Positions 45,413-51,828 are shown, counted from the stretch's first letter. The stretch is DNA of 64,000 nt from GCF_055900595.2 NZ_CM148325.1, one strand, 5' to 3'. Notes: generated by a model from the letters alone, not told the origin. Translations and numbers: made by a program.

Positions 45413-45790
45413 ATGCGTGATATTCAGATGGTTCTTGAGCGTTGGGGGGCATGGGCGGCTAATAATCATGAAGATGTGACCTGGTCGTCCATTGCCGCTG
45501 GTTTTAAGGGATTAATTCCTTCAAAAGTAAGATCTCGTCCGCAATGCTGTGACGATGACGCGATGATCATTTGTGAATGTATGGCTCGCCTGAGAAAAAA
45601 CAACAGCGATTTACATGGTTTATTGGTGGACTATTATGTCGGCGGCATGACTTTTATGGCGCTTGCACGTAAGCATGGGCGATCTGATTGTTGGGTTGGC
45701 AGGATGCTCCAGAAAGCTGAGGGCGTAGTGGAGGGCATGCTGATGGTATTGGATCTCCGATTGGAGATGGATGCTGATTGTTCGAAATAA
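45413..45790 (+). CDS. Late-gene antiterminator Q (short QuuD-type)
   Basis: [79 protein letters not shown]...; RBS GGAG. Confidence 0.85.
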
Positions 45791-45888
45791 TTAAAGGAAA
45801 AGTTGCTGTCTGATTGTCATTAGTCTAACATTTTAAATGTTGGAATCGCAACGTAGTTATTATCATATAACAGCTTGTTTCCTGATTT

Positions 45889-45918
45889 AGCCAGCCTCCC
45901 CAAAGGCTGGTTTTTTTC
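45889..45918 (+). terminator. Rho-independent terminator downstream of Q (tR'-like)
   Basis: CCAGCC-tccccaaa-GGCTGG stem followed by TTTTTTT. Confidence 0.55.
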
Positions 45919-45945: not shown

Positions 45946-46476
45946 TTATTGTTTAACCCATAATAATTCATTGACATTGAATCCCAACTTTTGAGCGGTT
46001 CGCACATAGTCTGCTTTTACTTTATCTGGAATAGTTGGGGTCCTTGCCAGAATCCATAGGTATTCTCTGTTCGAACCACTAACAAGAGCATACTTATACT
46101 CATCATCCAGTTTGATTACATTATAGCCACCATAGAAGGGGCCAAAAAACGAAACCTTCAACGCTGCAGTTTTAGTATCTCCAGTAAAGTATGCTTTACC
46201 TTCGCTCTCGCTCCATTTATTTTTCGTTGGATCGTATCCACGGTTAAGTACACGAATCCCTCCGTCGTTCCGTTTTCCATAAGTAGCGCTGACCTGCTCC
46301 AGACCACGTTCGAACCGGTTCTCGAGGCGAGCTATTTCATACCATTTTCCGAGGTAGCGGTTGGCGTCAAAATTTGTAATCGGCTGCACACCTTTAGGTG
46401 GTGTCGGGGCCTTACATGCTATAAGAGTGAAAGAGAGTGCAATGCCAGTCAACACAGGCCATAACTTCATAATCAA
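45946..46476 (-). CDS. Outer-membrane lipocalin (Blc homolog) lipoprotein, prophage moron
   Basis: 176-aa ORF with lipobox (...SFTLIAC) and lipocalin core FDANRYLGKWYEIARLENRFERGLE...YLWILARTPTIP; opposite strand to flanking late genes. Confidence 0.85.
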   Translation of the reverse strand: MIMKLWPVLTGIALSFTLIACKAPTPPKGVQPITNFDANRYLGKWYEIARLENRFERGLEQVSATYGKRNDGGIRVLNRGYDPTKNKWSESEGKAYFTGDTKTAALKVSFFGPFYGGYNVIKLDDEYKYALVSGSNREYLWILARTPTIPDKVKADYVRTAQKLGFNVNELLWVKQ

Positions 46477-46662
46477 TCCTGTACTTTTGATAGTTGAGAG
46501 TAAGTATGAAAGATAGATGATTACGACCGATCACTTAAAGAACTTTCATACTATATTAGGAATAGTCCATAACAGAAAAATTGTCAGTGATGACGTCAGA
46601 AAGGCAATTTATTCCGTGCACTACACAGTTTATGTGTTAATGAATTAGTCAAGGGGGAGGAT

Positions 46663-47622
46663 ATGATAAAAAAACCTGTGATTGGAATCAGCGGTTGTTT
46701 GGCCGGTTCTGCTGTTCGTTTTGATGGTGGTCACAAAAGAGCTGACTTTTTAATGGACAAATTAGTGGAATGGGTAACATTCAGACCAGTATGTCCGGAA
46801 ATGGCTATAGGGCTGCCAGTTCCGCGTCCTGCTCTACGTCTTGTGCGCTCGAAGCAAGGAAATATACGGATGTGTTTCAGCCACGACCAGAATGAGGATG
46901 TGACAGAGAGAATGACAGAGTTTAGTCGTTCTTATATGCACAAATTAAAGGATGTATCGGGGTTTGTGGTTTGTGCTAAATCTCCCAGCTGTGGCATGGA
47001 GCGCGTGCGTGTCTATGATGAAAATGGTAATCGAGGTCGTAAAGATGGAGTGGGACTATTTACGAGCACTTTGATGGAAAAGTTTTCCTGGCTACCGGTT
47101 GAAGAGGATGGGCGATTACATGATCCAGTGCTTCGTGAGAATTTTGTTGAAAGAGTTTTTGCTTTGCATGAGCTCAATCACCTTTACAAGGAGAAATTAT
47201 CAAGAAGAGAGTTATTAGCTTTTCATAGTCGTTATAAGCTTCAGTTGTTGGCGCATAGTCAGGCAGGCTATAAAGATATGGGACCATTTGTGGCTGCAAT
47301 ACACGAGTGGGCGGACCTTGAATCATACTTTGAGGTGTATCGTGATAAGCTGATGGCGATTCTCAGAAAACCTGCATCACGTAAAAATCACACGAATGTG
47401 CTGATGCATATACAGGGGTATTTTAGTAATTACTTAAGTACACGCCAGCGTAAAGAGTTGACCGAGGTTATACTTAACTATCGCTTTGGCACATTGCCTC
47501 TTCTTGCGCCGTTGACTCTGCTGAAGCATTATCTGGGTGAGTATCCTAATGATTACTTGCTTACACAGAATTACTTCGATCCCTATCCGGAAGAACTGGC
47601 TCTAAGACTGATGGTGAATTAA
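46663..47622 (+). CDS. DUF523 (TudS-like Fe-S) / DUF1722 (YbgA-like) fusion protein, prophage moron
   Basis: 319-aa ORF; N-terminus MIKKPVIGISGCLAGSAVRFDGGHKRADFL... with conserved cysteines; C-terminal half resembles YbgA/DUF1722; RBS AAGGGGGAGG. Confidence 0.7.
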   Translation: MIKKPVIGISGCLAGSAVRFDGGHKRADFLMDKLVEWVTFRPVCPEMAIGLPVPRPALRLVRSKQGNIRMCFSHDQNEDVTERMTEFSRSYMHKLKDVSGFVVCAKSPSCGMERVRVYDENGNRGRKDGVGLFTSTLMEKFSWLPVEEDGRLHDPVLRENFVERVFALHELNHLYKEKLSRRELLAFHSRYKLQLLAHSQAGYKDMGPFVAAIHEWADLESYFEVYRDKLMAILRKPASRKNHTNVLMHIQGYFSNYLSTRQRKELTEVILNYRFGTLPLLAPLTLLKHYLGEYPNDYLLTQNYFDPYPEELALRLMVN

Positions 47623-48028
47623 CTGTATGCGATATCATCTGAAAGTGATGAGTTCCTGTATGCAGGATATTTACAATCGTAAAAACTACACTATGATACC
47701 CATAGTGTCAGTTTGTATAAAAATCCTGTTCACGCTGAAGAAAACATTGAGATGCAATTTAATGTTGGTAAACATACCAGCCCCAAAAGATTTTATTCAA
47801 TCTGTTTTTATATGAAGATATTTCAAGTGAATATTAAGAGTATATAATATTATTATTGCACGCAGCTATTATAATATAACAGATTAGTTTAATGATTTGT
47901 TTTTTGTGAGTTAAACACATGGTTTTATAGTTGTGATGCAATGAGATTTTCCTTATTGTTGAACTGGCGAATATTGATTTTCCACCTATACTTACCTGGT
48001 GTAACCCCAGTGATATCAGGTGGATAAT

Positions 48029-48742
48029 ATGCCATACATATGTTCTGTCATTTTGGTGTTGAACTCGTTTGGTGTCCGAATTGGTAAAGAAGATATTTTG
48101 TTTAAAAAAGGAAGTGCTGTCCTCATCGAATACAATTTAAAAGATCTTTTTTCGTCAAATACAGATCATCTAATGATCGTAGATGTTGAGGAGAAAACAG
48201 TTAATGATTTCTTTAAAAACTACACACTCTCACCTTTTTCTGTAAGAAGGTTTTATCCGTCATACTTGATAGTAGAATGTGAAGATTTTTCATTGTTAAG
48301 GAACTTGGTTGCATGCTTGAATTGTGATAGCAAAACCGTGGATGTAGTTAGAAATCAAATATCACTTGCATGTCTTGCTGTCTTATCTTCAGAGAAAATA
48401 GTGCAAAGTTTTTTGTTCGGAAGTCTTAATAGCTTAGGTTGTAAAGTTAAGGCTATTATTCACTCGGATATCTCAGCGTCATGGAGACTTTGTGATATAT
48501 CTTCAAGATTATATATGAGCGAGAGTTTGTTAAAAAGAAAATTAAAAGACGAAGGATTATCGTTTAGTAAATTAATTCTTGAAGAACGAATGATGATGGC
48601 GCAAAGATTATTGATCTACAGTAACCATACTGTCGGCAAGGTGGCGGGAATATGCGGGTATGACAATGCATCATATTTTGTAAGTGTTTTTAGAGGATAT
48701 TTTGGTGTGCCTCCGCACCAATATTTATCAAGATTTTCTTAG
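48029..48742 (+). CDS. AraC/XylS-family transcriptional regulator (prophage-encoded), in AT-rich block
   Basis: ORF MPYICSVILVLNSFGVRIGKEDILFKKG...; C-terminal AraC HTH (...SESLLKRKLKDEGLSFSKLILEERMMMAQRLLIYSNHTVGKVAGICGYDNASYFVSVFRGYFGVPPHQY); RBS AGGTGG. Confidence 0.8.
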   Translation: MPYICSVILVLNSFGVRIGKEDILFKKGSAVLIEYNLKDLFSSNTDHLMIVDVEEKTVNDFFKNYTLSPFSVRRFYPSYLIVECEDFSLLRNLVACLNCDSKTVDVVRNQISLACLAVLSSEKIVQSFLFGSLNSLGCKVKAIIHSDISASWRLCDISSRLYMSESLLKRKLKDEGLSFSKLILEERMMMAQRLLIYSNHTVGKVAGICGYDNASYFVSVFRGYFGVPPHQYLSRFS

Positions 48743-48932
48743 AAGATATGATGTGATGGCATTTTATAAAGTTATTTTTTGAAGTGTAAGATTATACGAT
48801 ATTTTTAGCTACGCCAGAATAATTGCTGGCGTTTTTCTTTTTGAATAGATGTTCGGGCCTTACGCTAATGTAACTTCTTTCCTTCTTCGAACCAAACCGT
48901 GTACACCATCCGTTATCTGCGGAGGTGAGGCT

Positions 48933-49148
48933 ATGAAATCCATGGATAAGTTAACAACGGGCATCGCCTACAGCACCTCTGCAGGCAGTGCTGGCTACTG
49001 GTTTTTACAGTTGCTCGATAAAGTCACGCCCTCACAGTGGGCGGCAATAGGTGTATTGGGTAGTCTGGTATTTGGCATGCTGACGTATCTGACAAACCTT
49101 TATTTCAAGATTAAAGAAGACAGGCGTAAGGTTGCGAGAAGAGAGTAA
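48933..49148 (+). CDS. Holin (EssD/lambda S-like class)
   Basis: 71-aa [74 protein letters not shown]; RBS GAGGTGAGG. Confidence 0.85.
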
Positions 49149-49152
49149 TCCA

Positions 49153-49704
49153 ATGACTCAAGACTATGAACTGGTTGTGAAAGGAGTTCGCAATTTTGAG
49201 AATAAAGTGGCGGTAACTGTAGCCTTACGGGACAAAAAACACTTTGACGGTGAAATTTTTGACCTGGACATCTCGCTGGACCGTGTTGAAGGTGCCGCGC
49301 TGGAGTTTTATGAGGCAGCAGCCAGAAGGAGCATCAGACAGGTCTTCCTGGATGTTGCTGCCGGGTTATGTGAAGGGGATGAGCAGTCGCCGGAAAAGCG
49401 CCCCATAATTTTAGAGGCGCAGAATGTGTGGATAACCTACAAAGGAAAGCTACCGGGAAGAATTACTGGTTCTCTGAAGACGCCACCGACGGCATTGCGG
49501 TCAGAAAAAGATGATATTGAATCGCCCATTGAAAAACTGGAGGGCAGCGTCGCTGATCTGAATAAAAAATTGTCGGTGCTGATTCCTTCTGAAGATGAAA
49601 AAAAACGCCGCGATGAGCAGTTTGCGGCGTTTTACGATTATTGCATTGAAGTTACTCGCAGGAATTTTGTGAAGATTTTTGAGGAGGGTAAATCTCTTCA
49701 GTAA
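49153..49704 (+). CDS. Hypothetical protein inserted between holin and endolysin
   Basis: 183-aa ORF MTQDYELVVKGVRNFENKVAVTVALRDKKHFDGEIFDLDISLDRVEG...; RBS GAGAG; no recognisable motif. Confidence 0.5.
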   Translation: MTQDYELVVKGVRNFENKVAVTVALRDKKHFDGEIFDLDISLDRVEGAALEFYEAAARRSIRQVFLDVAAGLCEGDEQSPEKRPIILEAQNVWITYKGKLPGRITGSLKTPPTALRSEKDDIESPIEKLEGSVADLNKKLSVLIPSEDEKKRRDEQFAAFYDYCIEVTRRNFVKIFEEGKSLQ

Positions 49705-49912
49705 GCTTATTGGCGGACGCTGCAATTAATTCAGGAAGGTCCGCAAGGTCATCTGTCAGTGGATATGATGAAAAATCGGCGGCAGTTCTGTTAAGAAGCG
49801 CTTTAACTAATTCCTTTTCCTTCTCCGGCAACAAGTTGATTAGAGCTACGACTGCTTGCCTGAGTGCGATTAAATCAGCAAAAGTTTGTTTAGGTAGATT
49901 TGTGTAATCCAT
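49652..49912 (-). CDS. Hypothetical protein, convergent and 3'-overlapping the preceding gene
   Basis: 86-aa ORF MDYTNLPKQTFADLIALRQAVVALINLLPEKEKELVKALLNRTAADFSSYPL...; RBS GAGG 7 nt upstream; 53-nt 3' overlap with the plus-strand ORF. Confidence 0.35.
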   Translation of the reverse strand: MDYTNLPKQTFADLIALRQAVVALINLLPEKEKELVKALLNRTAADFSSYPLTDDLADLPELIAASANKLTEEIYPPQKSSQNSCE

Positions 49913-51053: not shown

Positions 51054-51416
51054 ATTAATATTAAATCGGATTATTTTTAGCGCTGAATGTGAAATTTAAA
51101 TAAAAAGGACTCTTCCATGAGTCAAAATCCTTGAAATCTTAAGGGTAAGATAAAAGGTCATTAGACAGAATGACACGTTTTATTAATAAATAAAGCTATT
51201 GTTTCATTCGTGTGTTTTTCTTTACAAAAGTAATCCTTGCTATGGTTGGTTAATCATGCGTTAATGGTGTTCTGGTTTGTTACAAAATTATCTGAAGCAG
51301 TCATTGTTATAATTTTATTATTTGTACCTCTTGAGATTTCCTTGTTGGTTTTTCTCTCTGATATTTTTTTTCGGACCATTCTGCCCAAGGGCTAACTTCT
51401 TCAAAAGGTAATAATG

Positions 51417-51629
51417 ATGTCTAACAAAATGACTGGTTTAGTGAAATGGTTTAACCCTGAAAAAGGTTTTGGTTTCATCACGCCGAAAGATGGTAGCAAA
51501 GATGTGTTTGTCCATTTCTCAGCTATTCAGAGCAACGATTTCAAAACGTTAACTGAGAATCAGGAAGTCGAATTTGGTATTGAGAACGGACCTAAAGGCC
51601 CCGCGGCTGTTCATGTTGTGGCACTTTGA
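51417..51629 (+). CDS. cspI: Cold-shock protein (CspA family; CspI-like)
   Basis: 70-aa [73 protein letters not shown]; preceded by ~360-bp untranslated AT-rich leader. Confidence 0.85.
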
Positions 51630-51828
51630 GGTAGATAATATTACAAACCATATTCACTTTAGATGCCCGTGTTGCCATGGTTCTCAGTATAGAACATCAT
51701 CTTTTGATGTTTCTGACAGGAATCCTTTCGGGGCAAAATGTATCTTTTGTAAATCAATGATGATTACATTTGATAATATTTCACAATACTTAAATGTTAG
51801 CCGTCTATCGTTAGATTTAAGAAAGTGA
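51613..51828 (+). CDS. Candidate small zinc-ribbon-like protein (CPCC...CxxC)
   Basis: [51 protein letters not shown]...; overlaps csp 3' end; weak RBS; followed by terminator. Confidence 0.25.

Follow-up and report, generated by a model that had tools for sequence, protein, structure and literature searches.

A prophage-borne AraC-family gene in an AT-rich islet of Escherichia coli, a probable moron related to PatE, Psr and AppY

Introduction

The prophage-encoded AraC-like regulators AppY, PatE and PsrA/B are known to plug into the acid-resistance and virulence networks of Escherichia coli. According to reviews, PatE and PsrB activate gadE/hdeA, and the Psr genes are linked to effector and pch loci. 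AppY, the best-studied functional model for the subgroup, activates gadE directly and is under H-NS control. Here we describe a relative of these regulators in a 64,000-nucleotide stretch of GCF_055900595.2 (NZ_CM148325.1), referred to as the window. The gene, called the AraC gene below, occupies 48029-48742 on the plus strand, within an AT-rich islet (47623-48932) in the late region of a lambdoid prophage.

The islet is probably a self-contained moron of this prophage that encodes a functional regulator of the GadX/GadW/YdeO/AppY/PatE/Psr subgroup. Taken by itself, the claim that the AraC protein is a functional regulator of the PatE/Psr/AppY clade is very likely to hold.

Results

The AT-rich islet and its gene

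The islet has a GC content of 0.337, the window as a whole one of 0.484. Among the 1310-nt stretches of the window just 0.27% are as low, the global minimum starts at 47541, and GC falls below 0.36 in a single other stretch, an AT-rich patch at ~50.9-52.7 kb. The coding sequence has a GC content of 0.34 (0.31 at third codon positions) and the 406-nt spacer upstream one of 0.313, while the adjacent genes are at 43-47% (lipocalin 0.43, YbgA 0.43, holin 0.46). This spacer is the leader or intergenic region of the gene (47623-48028, plus strand, GC 0.31). It is 69% AT, its density of A/T tracts and TpA steps is about twice that of the window, and it varies by indels between alleles; in an allele alignment the window allele carries a ~54-nt insertion at ~47783-47836 relative to all other alleles.

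The first-pass annotation, which was made from the sequence alone, had proposed an AT-rich, prophage-borne islet running from a DUF523 gene to a holin and encoding a 237-aa AraC/XylS-family regulator with a C-terminal dual helix-turn-helix (HTH). The computed composition bears this out, as do the integrase, cI/Cro, Q, lysis and head genes around the AraC gene, the open reading frame (ORF) with its HTH_18 and two HTH_AraC matches, and the upstream gene, which has the YbgA-family architecture of a 2-thiouracil-desulfurase domain (formerly DUF523) and a DUF1722 domain. A holin does lie downstream, but it starts at 48933, as in the RefSeq essQ, and not at ~48850; a 99-aa ORF from 48849 was rejected as an over-extension of it.

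RefSeq gives the 237-aa form starting at the ATG (WP_001587085.1, from the matching locus of E. coli THO-008), and AGGTGG stands 5 nt upstream of this codon; an alternative GTG start lies at 48020. The gene call draws on the ORF list, RefSeq, Pfam and a structure model. A 62-aa ORF at 47627-47815 was taken as non-coding, as it lies within the AT-rich leader, across indel-rich sequence.

Most of the family has low GC, which is thus not peculiar to the window copy: the window clade is at 31-34%, PatE at 35%, AppY at 32% and YdeO at 40%, with the Psr type, GadW and GadX at 41-44%. Since the closest relatives share it, it has more to do with the composition of the lineage than with anything that happened recently at this site.

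Family and predicted structure of the protein

The protein consists of an N-terminal beta-rich domain and a helical linker, followed by a C-terminal double HTH at about residues 136-237. Pfam HTH_18 matched at 7.2e-16 over residues 161-237, in the numbering of the 240-aa GTG form that was scanned, and the two HTH_AraC matches had E values of 1e-5 and 0.047. The best NCBIfam match was YdeO (residues 1-231), followed by partial matches to an unnamed AraC-family model, HilD and GadX. With 112.5 bits against a cut-off of 348 for the YdeO equivalog (NF007407) and 90 bits against 500 for that of GadX (NF007432), the protein is an orthologue of neither. Residues 1-237 match phrog_1450 at 1.8e-96 (profile positions 8-251 of 254), and PatE (1e-96) and the Psr type (4e-99) are full-length members of the same family.

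Psr/PatE-type regulators had been named at the outset as the comparison to make, and the alignments place the protein among them. PatE aligns without a gap along 237 aa at 48% identity (E 2e-77), with 65% in the DNA-binding half and 36% in the N-terminal domain, and the recognition helix of the first HTH, SESLLKRKLK, is the same in both. The Psr-type 237-aa protein of a CP-933O-type prophage in the O157 strain ATCC 43894, whose gene closely follows that of a Q-like antiterminator, is 38% identical (E 7e-50). Identities fall to 34% for GadW, 30% for AppY, 28% for YdeO and 27% for GadX, and a sequence match to ToxT covers residues 23-234, thereby reaching into the N-terminal domain. All 20 columns that are invariant across 18 family members are kept in the window protein. 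In a distance tree the window clade sits beside a 60% relative (P0013), followed by PatE and the Psr type, with the chromosomal paralogues outermost. PatE-type copies form a cluster of their own, 47-48% identical to the window protein and in a different context, and O157:H7 genomes are without the AraC gene, their sole DNA match being 220 nt at 72% in the PatE locus. Going by these sequence relationships, the window protein is a paralogue of PatE and the orthologue of no named member.

Two groups of Psr-type proteins were found in viral contigs, each of 237 aa and 38% identical to the window protein. They are 90% identical to each other, which matches the published mutual relationship of PsrA and PsrB (review) and so supports the Psr labelling; the CP-933O protein is the putative PsrB. 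Reviews assign psrA (z1789) to CP-933N. In ATCC 43894, a tblastn search for it in CP-933N, over two stretches covering 1.61-1.70 Mb, returned no AraC-like ORF, and the sole Psr-type gene in the stretches examined was that of the CP-933O-type prophage (L020:6697-7410). In viral contigs, Psr-type genes do occur ~560 nt after a Q gene of CP-933N type.

Two further candidates were set aside. A small O157-associated phage contig (L014) is ~41-46% identical to everything and thus uninformative, and the P0028-P0030 group is not a set of prophage relatives, being borne on genomic islands beside a MASE4-GGDEF gene. The wider P0027-P0030 group is 32-36% related to the window protein; its gene (8001-8759 in L015-L018) lies on islands flanked by integrase and IS genes, ~1.7 kb 5' of the MASE4-GGDEF gene.

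The AlphaFold2 model of the protein has a predicted local distance difference test score (pLDDT) of 89.7 and a predicted template modelling score (pTM) of 0.86. Its DNA-binding domain superposes on that of GadX (3mkl) at 1.2-1.5 A and also matches those of MarA, AraC and AdpA. Foldseek searches with the whole modelled chain returned CsvR, Rns and ToxT (E 7e-11 to 3e-7), which have in common with the model a two-domain fold with an N-terminal beta-sandwich.

Distribution and the cargo slot between Q and holin

At least 80% of the AraC gene is present in 995 of 5426 complete E. coli genomes. The copies are nearly all chromosomal, with 4 of 1746 matching places on plasmids. A survey of 80 viral contigs was used to look at gene order. 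In all ~33 window-type viral copies with enough flank, the order is Q, lipocalin (minus strand), YbgA, AraC and holin, with the Q gene 5' of every copy and the holin start 192-216 nt after the AraC match; the same order is found in three chromosomal alleles, set in two prophage backbones. The lipocalin/YbgA/AraC block occurs in the Qin-site prophage of the window, in DLP12-type prophages (rusA-ylcG-Q), and in phages that can be cultivated (IdasGreatGrand and the Lambda_2G7a/1H12/ev series). The DLP12 prophage of K-12 carries nmpC in the same slot, and homology to its holin region starts ~20 nt before the holin start.

Relatives occupy similar places in other company. The 60% relative P0013 and the P0016/L052 type stand directly after other Q families, with neither lipocalin nor YbgA; the AraC gene is alone in loci L022 and L052. 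Q genes of three families precede the Psr-type copies by 0.5-2.1 kb. The ~28 PatE-type copies are mostly between tail-fibre/pinE genes and an integrase, and one is between Q and holin. Within the window-type block, the lipocalin and YbgA genes are 98-100% identical between alleles and the AraC islet 68-97%. Because relatives follow other Q families without the two companion genes, and because divergence between alleles differs in this way, the AraC gene is, as read from these arrangements, an independent unit that has settled repeatedly in the late region. It has three marks by which morons are recognised: a composition distinct from the flanking phage genes (GC 0.34 vs 0.43-0.47), a predicted terminator of its own, and presence or absence among related phages.

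Alleles and selection

The AraC gene falls into three allele classes, at ~99-100%, 89% and 82% DNA identity. Pairwise dN/dS (the ratio of nonsynonymous to synonymous substitution rates) is ~0.2; for the HTH half alone it is 0.12, and for the N-terminal half 0.33-0.46. The possibility raised earlier, that the ORF might be degenerate or truncated relative to its family, was not borne out: full-length related loci are intact in 24 of 28 cases, the four broken ones all belonging to the 89% allele, and the ORF of the window is intact and under purifying selection. The 237-aa form is that of P0001, a cluster as large as 1532 members.

Measured against the 89% allele, the synonymous divergence (dS) of the window allele rises from 0.12 in its first half to 0.71 in its second; this allele is an intragenic mosaic, and it is missing the last 6 residues of the other alleles. 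P0003 is a further recombinant between allele classes. These two cases suggest that recombination within the AraC gene is frequent.

Candidate promoter, leader and terminator signals

A candidate sigma-70 promoter, TTTACA-16-TATGAT (47670-47697, plus strand), has 10 of 12 consensus positions and is overlapped by a palindrome with 8-bp arms (47688-47708). Every allele keeps this block, even the most diverged one, amid sequence that diverges and has indels. The transcription start predicted from it is near 47704.

The gap between the AraC stop codon and the holin contains the predicted intrinsic terminator of the gene (48811-48832, plus strand), in which ACGCCAG pairs across a loop with CTGGCGT and is followed by TTTTTCTTTTT. 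The stem and T-run are invariant in four aligned alleles, with a single T/C change in the loop, and a diagnostic 13-mer of the terminator was found in 28 of 28 related loci. The 4-kb stretch around the gene has 7 terminator-like sites, compared with 2.7 +/- 1.4 in shuffled sequence.

Just upstream of the start codon, a possible hairpin (47981-48024, plus strand) would sequester the Shine-Dalgarno (SD) sequence, with TCCACCT at 47981-47987 pairing with AGGTGGA at 48018-48024. In the allele alignment the arms are conserved and the loop has diverged. Of 28 window-type loci, 27 have the pairing of anti-SD and SD arms, and the arms pair in the minimum-free-energy folds of 3 of 3 alleles, but with weak z-scores of -0.7 to -1.7. 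The leader hairpin showed no covariation, its arms being invariant within the clade, and the anti-SD arm is absent from the 60% relative. In the PatE and P0016 leaders, the SD region pairs with an upstream UCAUCC. A leader hairpin that hides the ribosome-binding site could exist, and is best taken as a lead rather than a finding.

Prophage setting and neighbouring genes

A nearly identical chromosome is that of E. coli THO-008, which differs from the window at 10 of 25,341 positions; the isolates with the closest matching chromosomes are mostly human, with some from wastewater and poultry. The window is chromosomal from 1 to ~31,300 (rstB to rspB), beyond which lie an integrase and, at the Qin site, a lambdoid prophage with exonuclease, dicB, cI/Cro-like genes, hokD, a DUF968 gene, Q, lysis genes, cspI, terminase and head genes.

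On its left, the cargo slot is bounded by the Q-type late antiterminator gene (45413-45790, plus strand), annotated by RefSeq as an antiterminator Q family protein in the THO-008 locus. A candidate late promoter pR', TTGCTG-17-TAACAT (45803-45831, plus strand), was read from the sequence; it scores under the threshold of the promoter scan, and its placement directly after Q fits lambdoid organisation. A terminator scan placed a tR'-like hairpin and T-run directly after Q (45889-45912, plus strand), with 9 pairs, of which 5 are G-C, followed by TTTTTTCT and identical in the 89% allele.

The lipocalin and YbgA genes (45946-47622) are conserved phage cargo that accompanies the AraC gene. The former encodes a Blc-like lipocalin lipoprotein (45946-46470, minus strand; RefSeq lipocalin family protein) and matches NF007786 with 312 bits against a cut-off of 267. 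The YbgA-family gene (46663-47622, plus strand) matches PF04463 (2-thiour_desulf) at 1e-39 and PF08349 at 9e-40. None of the AraC, YbgA and lipocalin proteins matched a defence system in PADLOC.

On its right, the slot is bounded by the class II holin essQ (48933-49148, plus strand; RefSeq, 71 aa). Between holin and lysozyme (49153-49912), RefSeq annotates ydfR as a truncated pseudogene, along with a small hypothetical gene on the minus strand, and the lysis cassette may be disrupted around this point. A 190-aa ORF after the holin (49132-49704) had no NCBIfam or PADLOC match. With permissive thresholds over 43-53 kb, Rfam matched nothing in the islet; its sole matches were a cspA thermoregulator near cspI and a sub-threshold match on the tR' hairpin. 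The thermoregulator (51259-51675) scores 113 bits, against a gathering score of 78, and lies ahead of the prophage cspI.

Discussion

The favoured explanation and what weighs against it

If the islet is a moron with a functional regulator, it might work as follows. In a lysogen, a promoter of its own within the AT-rich leader would drive the AraC gene, whose expression would probably be held low by H-NS, as reported for appY; by this analogy, we rate H-NS silencing of the gene as fairly probable. The leader hairpin over the ribosome-binding site would possibly add to the repression. A dimer of the protein would bind AT-rich sites and activate host promoters, and the likeliest targets would be those of the glutamate-dependent acid-resistance circuit, gadE and hdeAB, as for PatE, PsrB and AppY. 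Whether that regulon would be the main target is, on this analogy, an evenly balanced question. The gene would also lie inside the Q-antiterminated late unit, in the position that stx has in Shiga toxin (Stx) phages. Lambda-type Q complexes read through terminators, and for this reason prophage induction should also transcribe the AraC gene strongly, via Q-modified polymerase.

Several observations weigh against this explanation. The promoter call rests on its consensus match, and promoter-like sites are not in excess (13, compared with 11 +/- 3.5 in shuffled sequence). The high-affinity H-NS motif has one weak match in the islet, with 2 mismatches, which is not above the rate across the window. 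The recognition helix of the second HTH is NASYFVSVFRG in the window protein and SVSYFTYVFRR in PatE, and three of the differences align with residues which we take to be the base contacts of MarA in its complex with DNA; because of this unlike helix, the choice of targets may differ from that of PatE. The input signal may differ as well, since the N-terminal domain is just 36% identical to that of PatE.

The function also seems to be lost at times. Among 14 loci of the 89% allele, 4 (L047, L048, L049 and L082) have just T7 or T6 in place of a T8 run at codons ~39-42, and the frameshifted alleles reach a stop after 44-52 codons. A 195-aa restart form with 623 members (P0012) matches this frameshift, next to 1131 members of the intact form (P0002). 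In the window allele the T run is interrupted by a C (48146-48153) and the gene is intact. Because about a third of the 89% alleles carry the frameshift, the function is dispensable in many hosts; the run might be a hotspot of slippage, or else a switch that turns the gene on and off. Finally, a literature search found no paper that names the AraC gene or the cassette.

Alternative explanations

The differences from PatE lead to the alternative that the protein has been retargeted, through its diverged second HTH and N-terminal domain, to other host regulons such as adhesins, secretion systems, respiration or biofilm. AppY targets are reported to be pleiotropic and to reach beyond acid resistance, a review reports effects of PsrA/B and PatE on the locus of enterocyte effacement and type III secretion, and the regulators of the same fold class, Rns, CsvR and ToxT, are mainly activators of pilus and virulence genes. 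Yet acid-resistance genes such as gadE and hdeA are among the targets of each characterised relative considered here (PatE, PsrB and AppY), and the first HTH is identical to that of PatE. We regard retargeting as unlikely, though worth keeping in view.

Classical AraC-family regulators control an adjacent operon, and the AraC gene might in the same way be a local regulator of its lipocalin and YbgA/TudS-like companions. The three genes are together in all window-type loci with enough flank, lipocalin on the minus strand and the other two on the plus strand, and a regulated pair of promoters could lie in the spacer from which lipocalin and YbgA diverge (46477-46662). The association breaks down in the relatives, however: the P0013 (60%), P0016/L052 (50%) and Psr types follow Q without either companion. 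The companions also differ from the AraC gene in composition (GC 0.43 vs 0.34) and in history, being 98-100% identical between alleles whose AraC genes are ~85-89% identical, and the characterised PatE, PsrB and AppY act on distant host genes. Local control is thus a distinctly poor prospect.

A bolder version of the favoured explanation makes the placement in the Q late unit functional. The regulator would be abundant solely on prophage induction, or once temperature or a trans-acting factor has melted the leader hairpin; host acid-resistance or envelope programmes would be coupled to induction in the manner of Shiga toxin release; and the T8 run of the sister allele would be a heritable on/off switch. 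We consider this combination a long shot.

That the gene instead serves the phage in the lytic cycle, by tuning host physiology, late transcription or the moment of lysis, and plays no part in the lysogen, would explain its obligatory place in the Q-dependent late unit 192-216 nt before the holin, with at least four Q families, and its retention in the cultivable IdasGreatGrand and Lambda_2G7a/1H12/ev phages. This is very improbable: a conserved terminator and promoter-like block of its own mark the gene as an independent unit, PatE-type and AppY copies lie at the tail-fibre/integrase end and outside the late lysis region, related prophages manage without the gene (that of K-12 DLP12 has nmpC there), and frameshift alleles are frequent.

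The idea that the gene is a decaying, functionless remnant in a defective prophage, to which the ydfR pseudogene in the surrounding lysis region, the frequent frameshifts of sister alleles and the 6 missing residues of the window allele might be thought to point, is hardly credible, as it is contradicted by the selection data (intact ORF, dN/dS 0.12-0.46), the 1532 members of the 237-aa cluster, the same 237-aa length in both Psr types, the presence of all invariant family residues and a confident structure model.

Implications

If the explanation of the islet as a moron with a functional regulator is true, activation of gadE/hdeA would make the AraC gene a common factor that modifies the acid survival of non-O157 E. 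coli and varies from strain to strain. Its lineage is a fourth, unstudied one among the prophage AraC regulators, next to AppY, PatE and PsrA/B, and is carried by about one in six complete E. coli genomes, many of them of human isolates. Its occurrence in cultivable temperate phages opens the gene to direct study, and its fixed, Stx-like slot between Q and holin allows a clean test of the link between regulator and induction. The present picture of the field would be left unchanged by all this.

Comparison with known systems

The closest named relative is PatE (Z0321, O-island 8 of E. coli O157:H7 EDL933), a prophage AraC-like activator of acid resistance. Both genes are prophage-borne, have low GC in the gene and its leader, and belong to phrog_1450; PatE differs in its position, between tail-fibre/pinE genes and an integrase, whereas the window gene lies between Q and holin. 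PsrA and PsrB (Z1789 and Z2104), the prophage secretion regulators of enterohaemorrhagic E. coli O157:H7, are likewise phrog_1450 proteins of 237 aa, and their genes are also in the late region shortly downstream of a Q-type antiterminator. Unlike the window gene, they are at ~44% GC and their leader is not AT-rich; tRNA genes, a TerB-family gene and an esterase gene come after them, where the window gene has the holin as its direct neighbour.

AppY, of the DLP12 prophage in E. coli K-12, is prophage-borne, belongs to the same subgroup and is comparably AT-rich (GC 0.32, leader 0.24), but it is 30% identical and lies at the far end of DLP12 beside ompT, outside the Q-holin slot. GadX, GadW and YdeO share collinear, full-length homology with the window protein, at 27-34% identity, and are chromosomal, belonging to the acid fitness island and the EvgA regulon. 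Full-length structures have been solved for Rns, CsvR and ToxT, virulence activators that respond to fatty acids, and have the same two-domain architecture as the model; these three stand further away, at 17-21% identity and a template modelling score (TM-score) of ~0.45, with the domains oriented differently.

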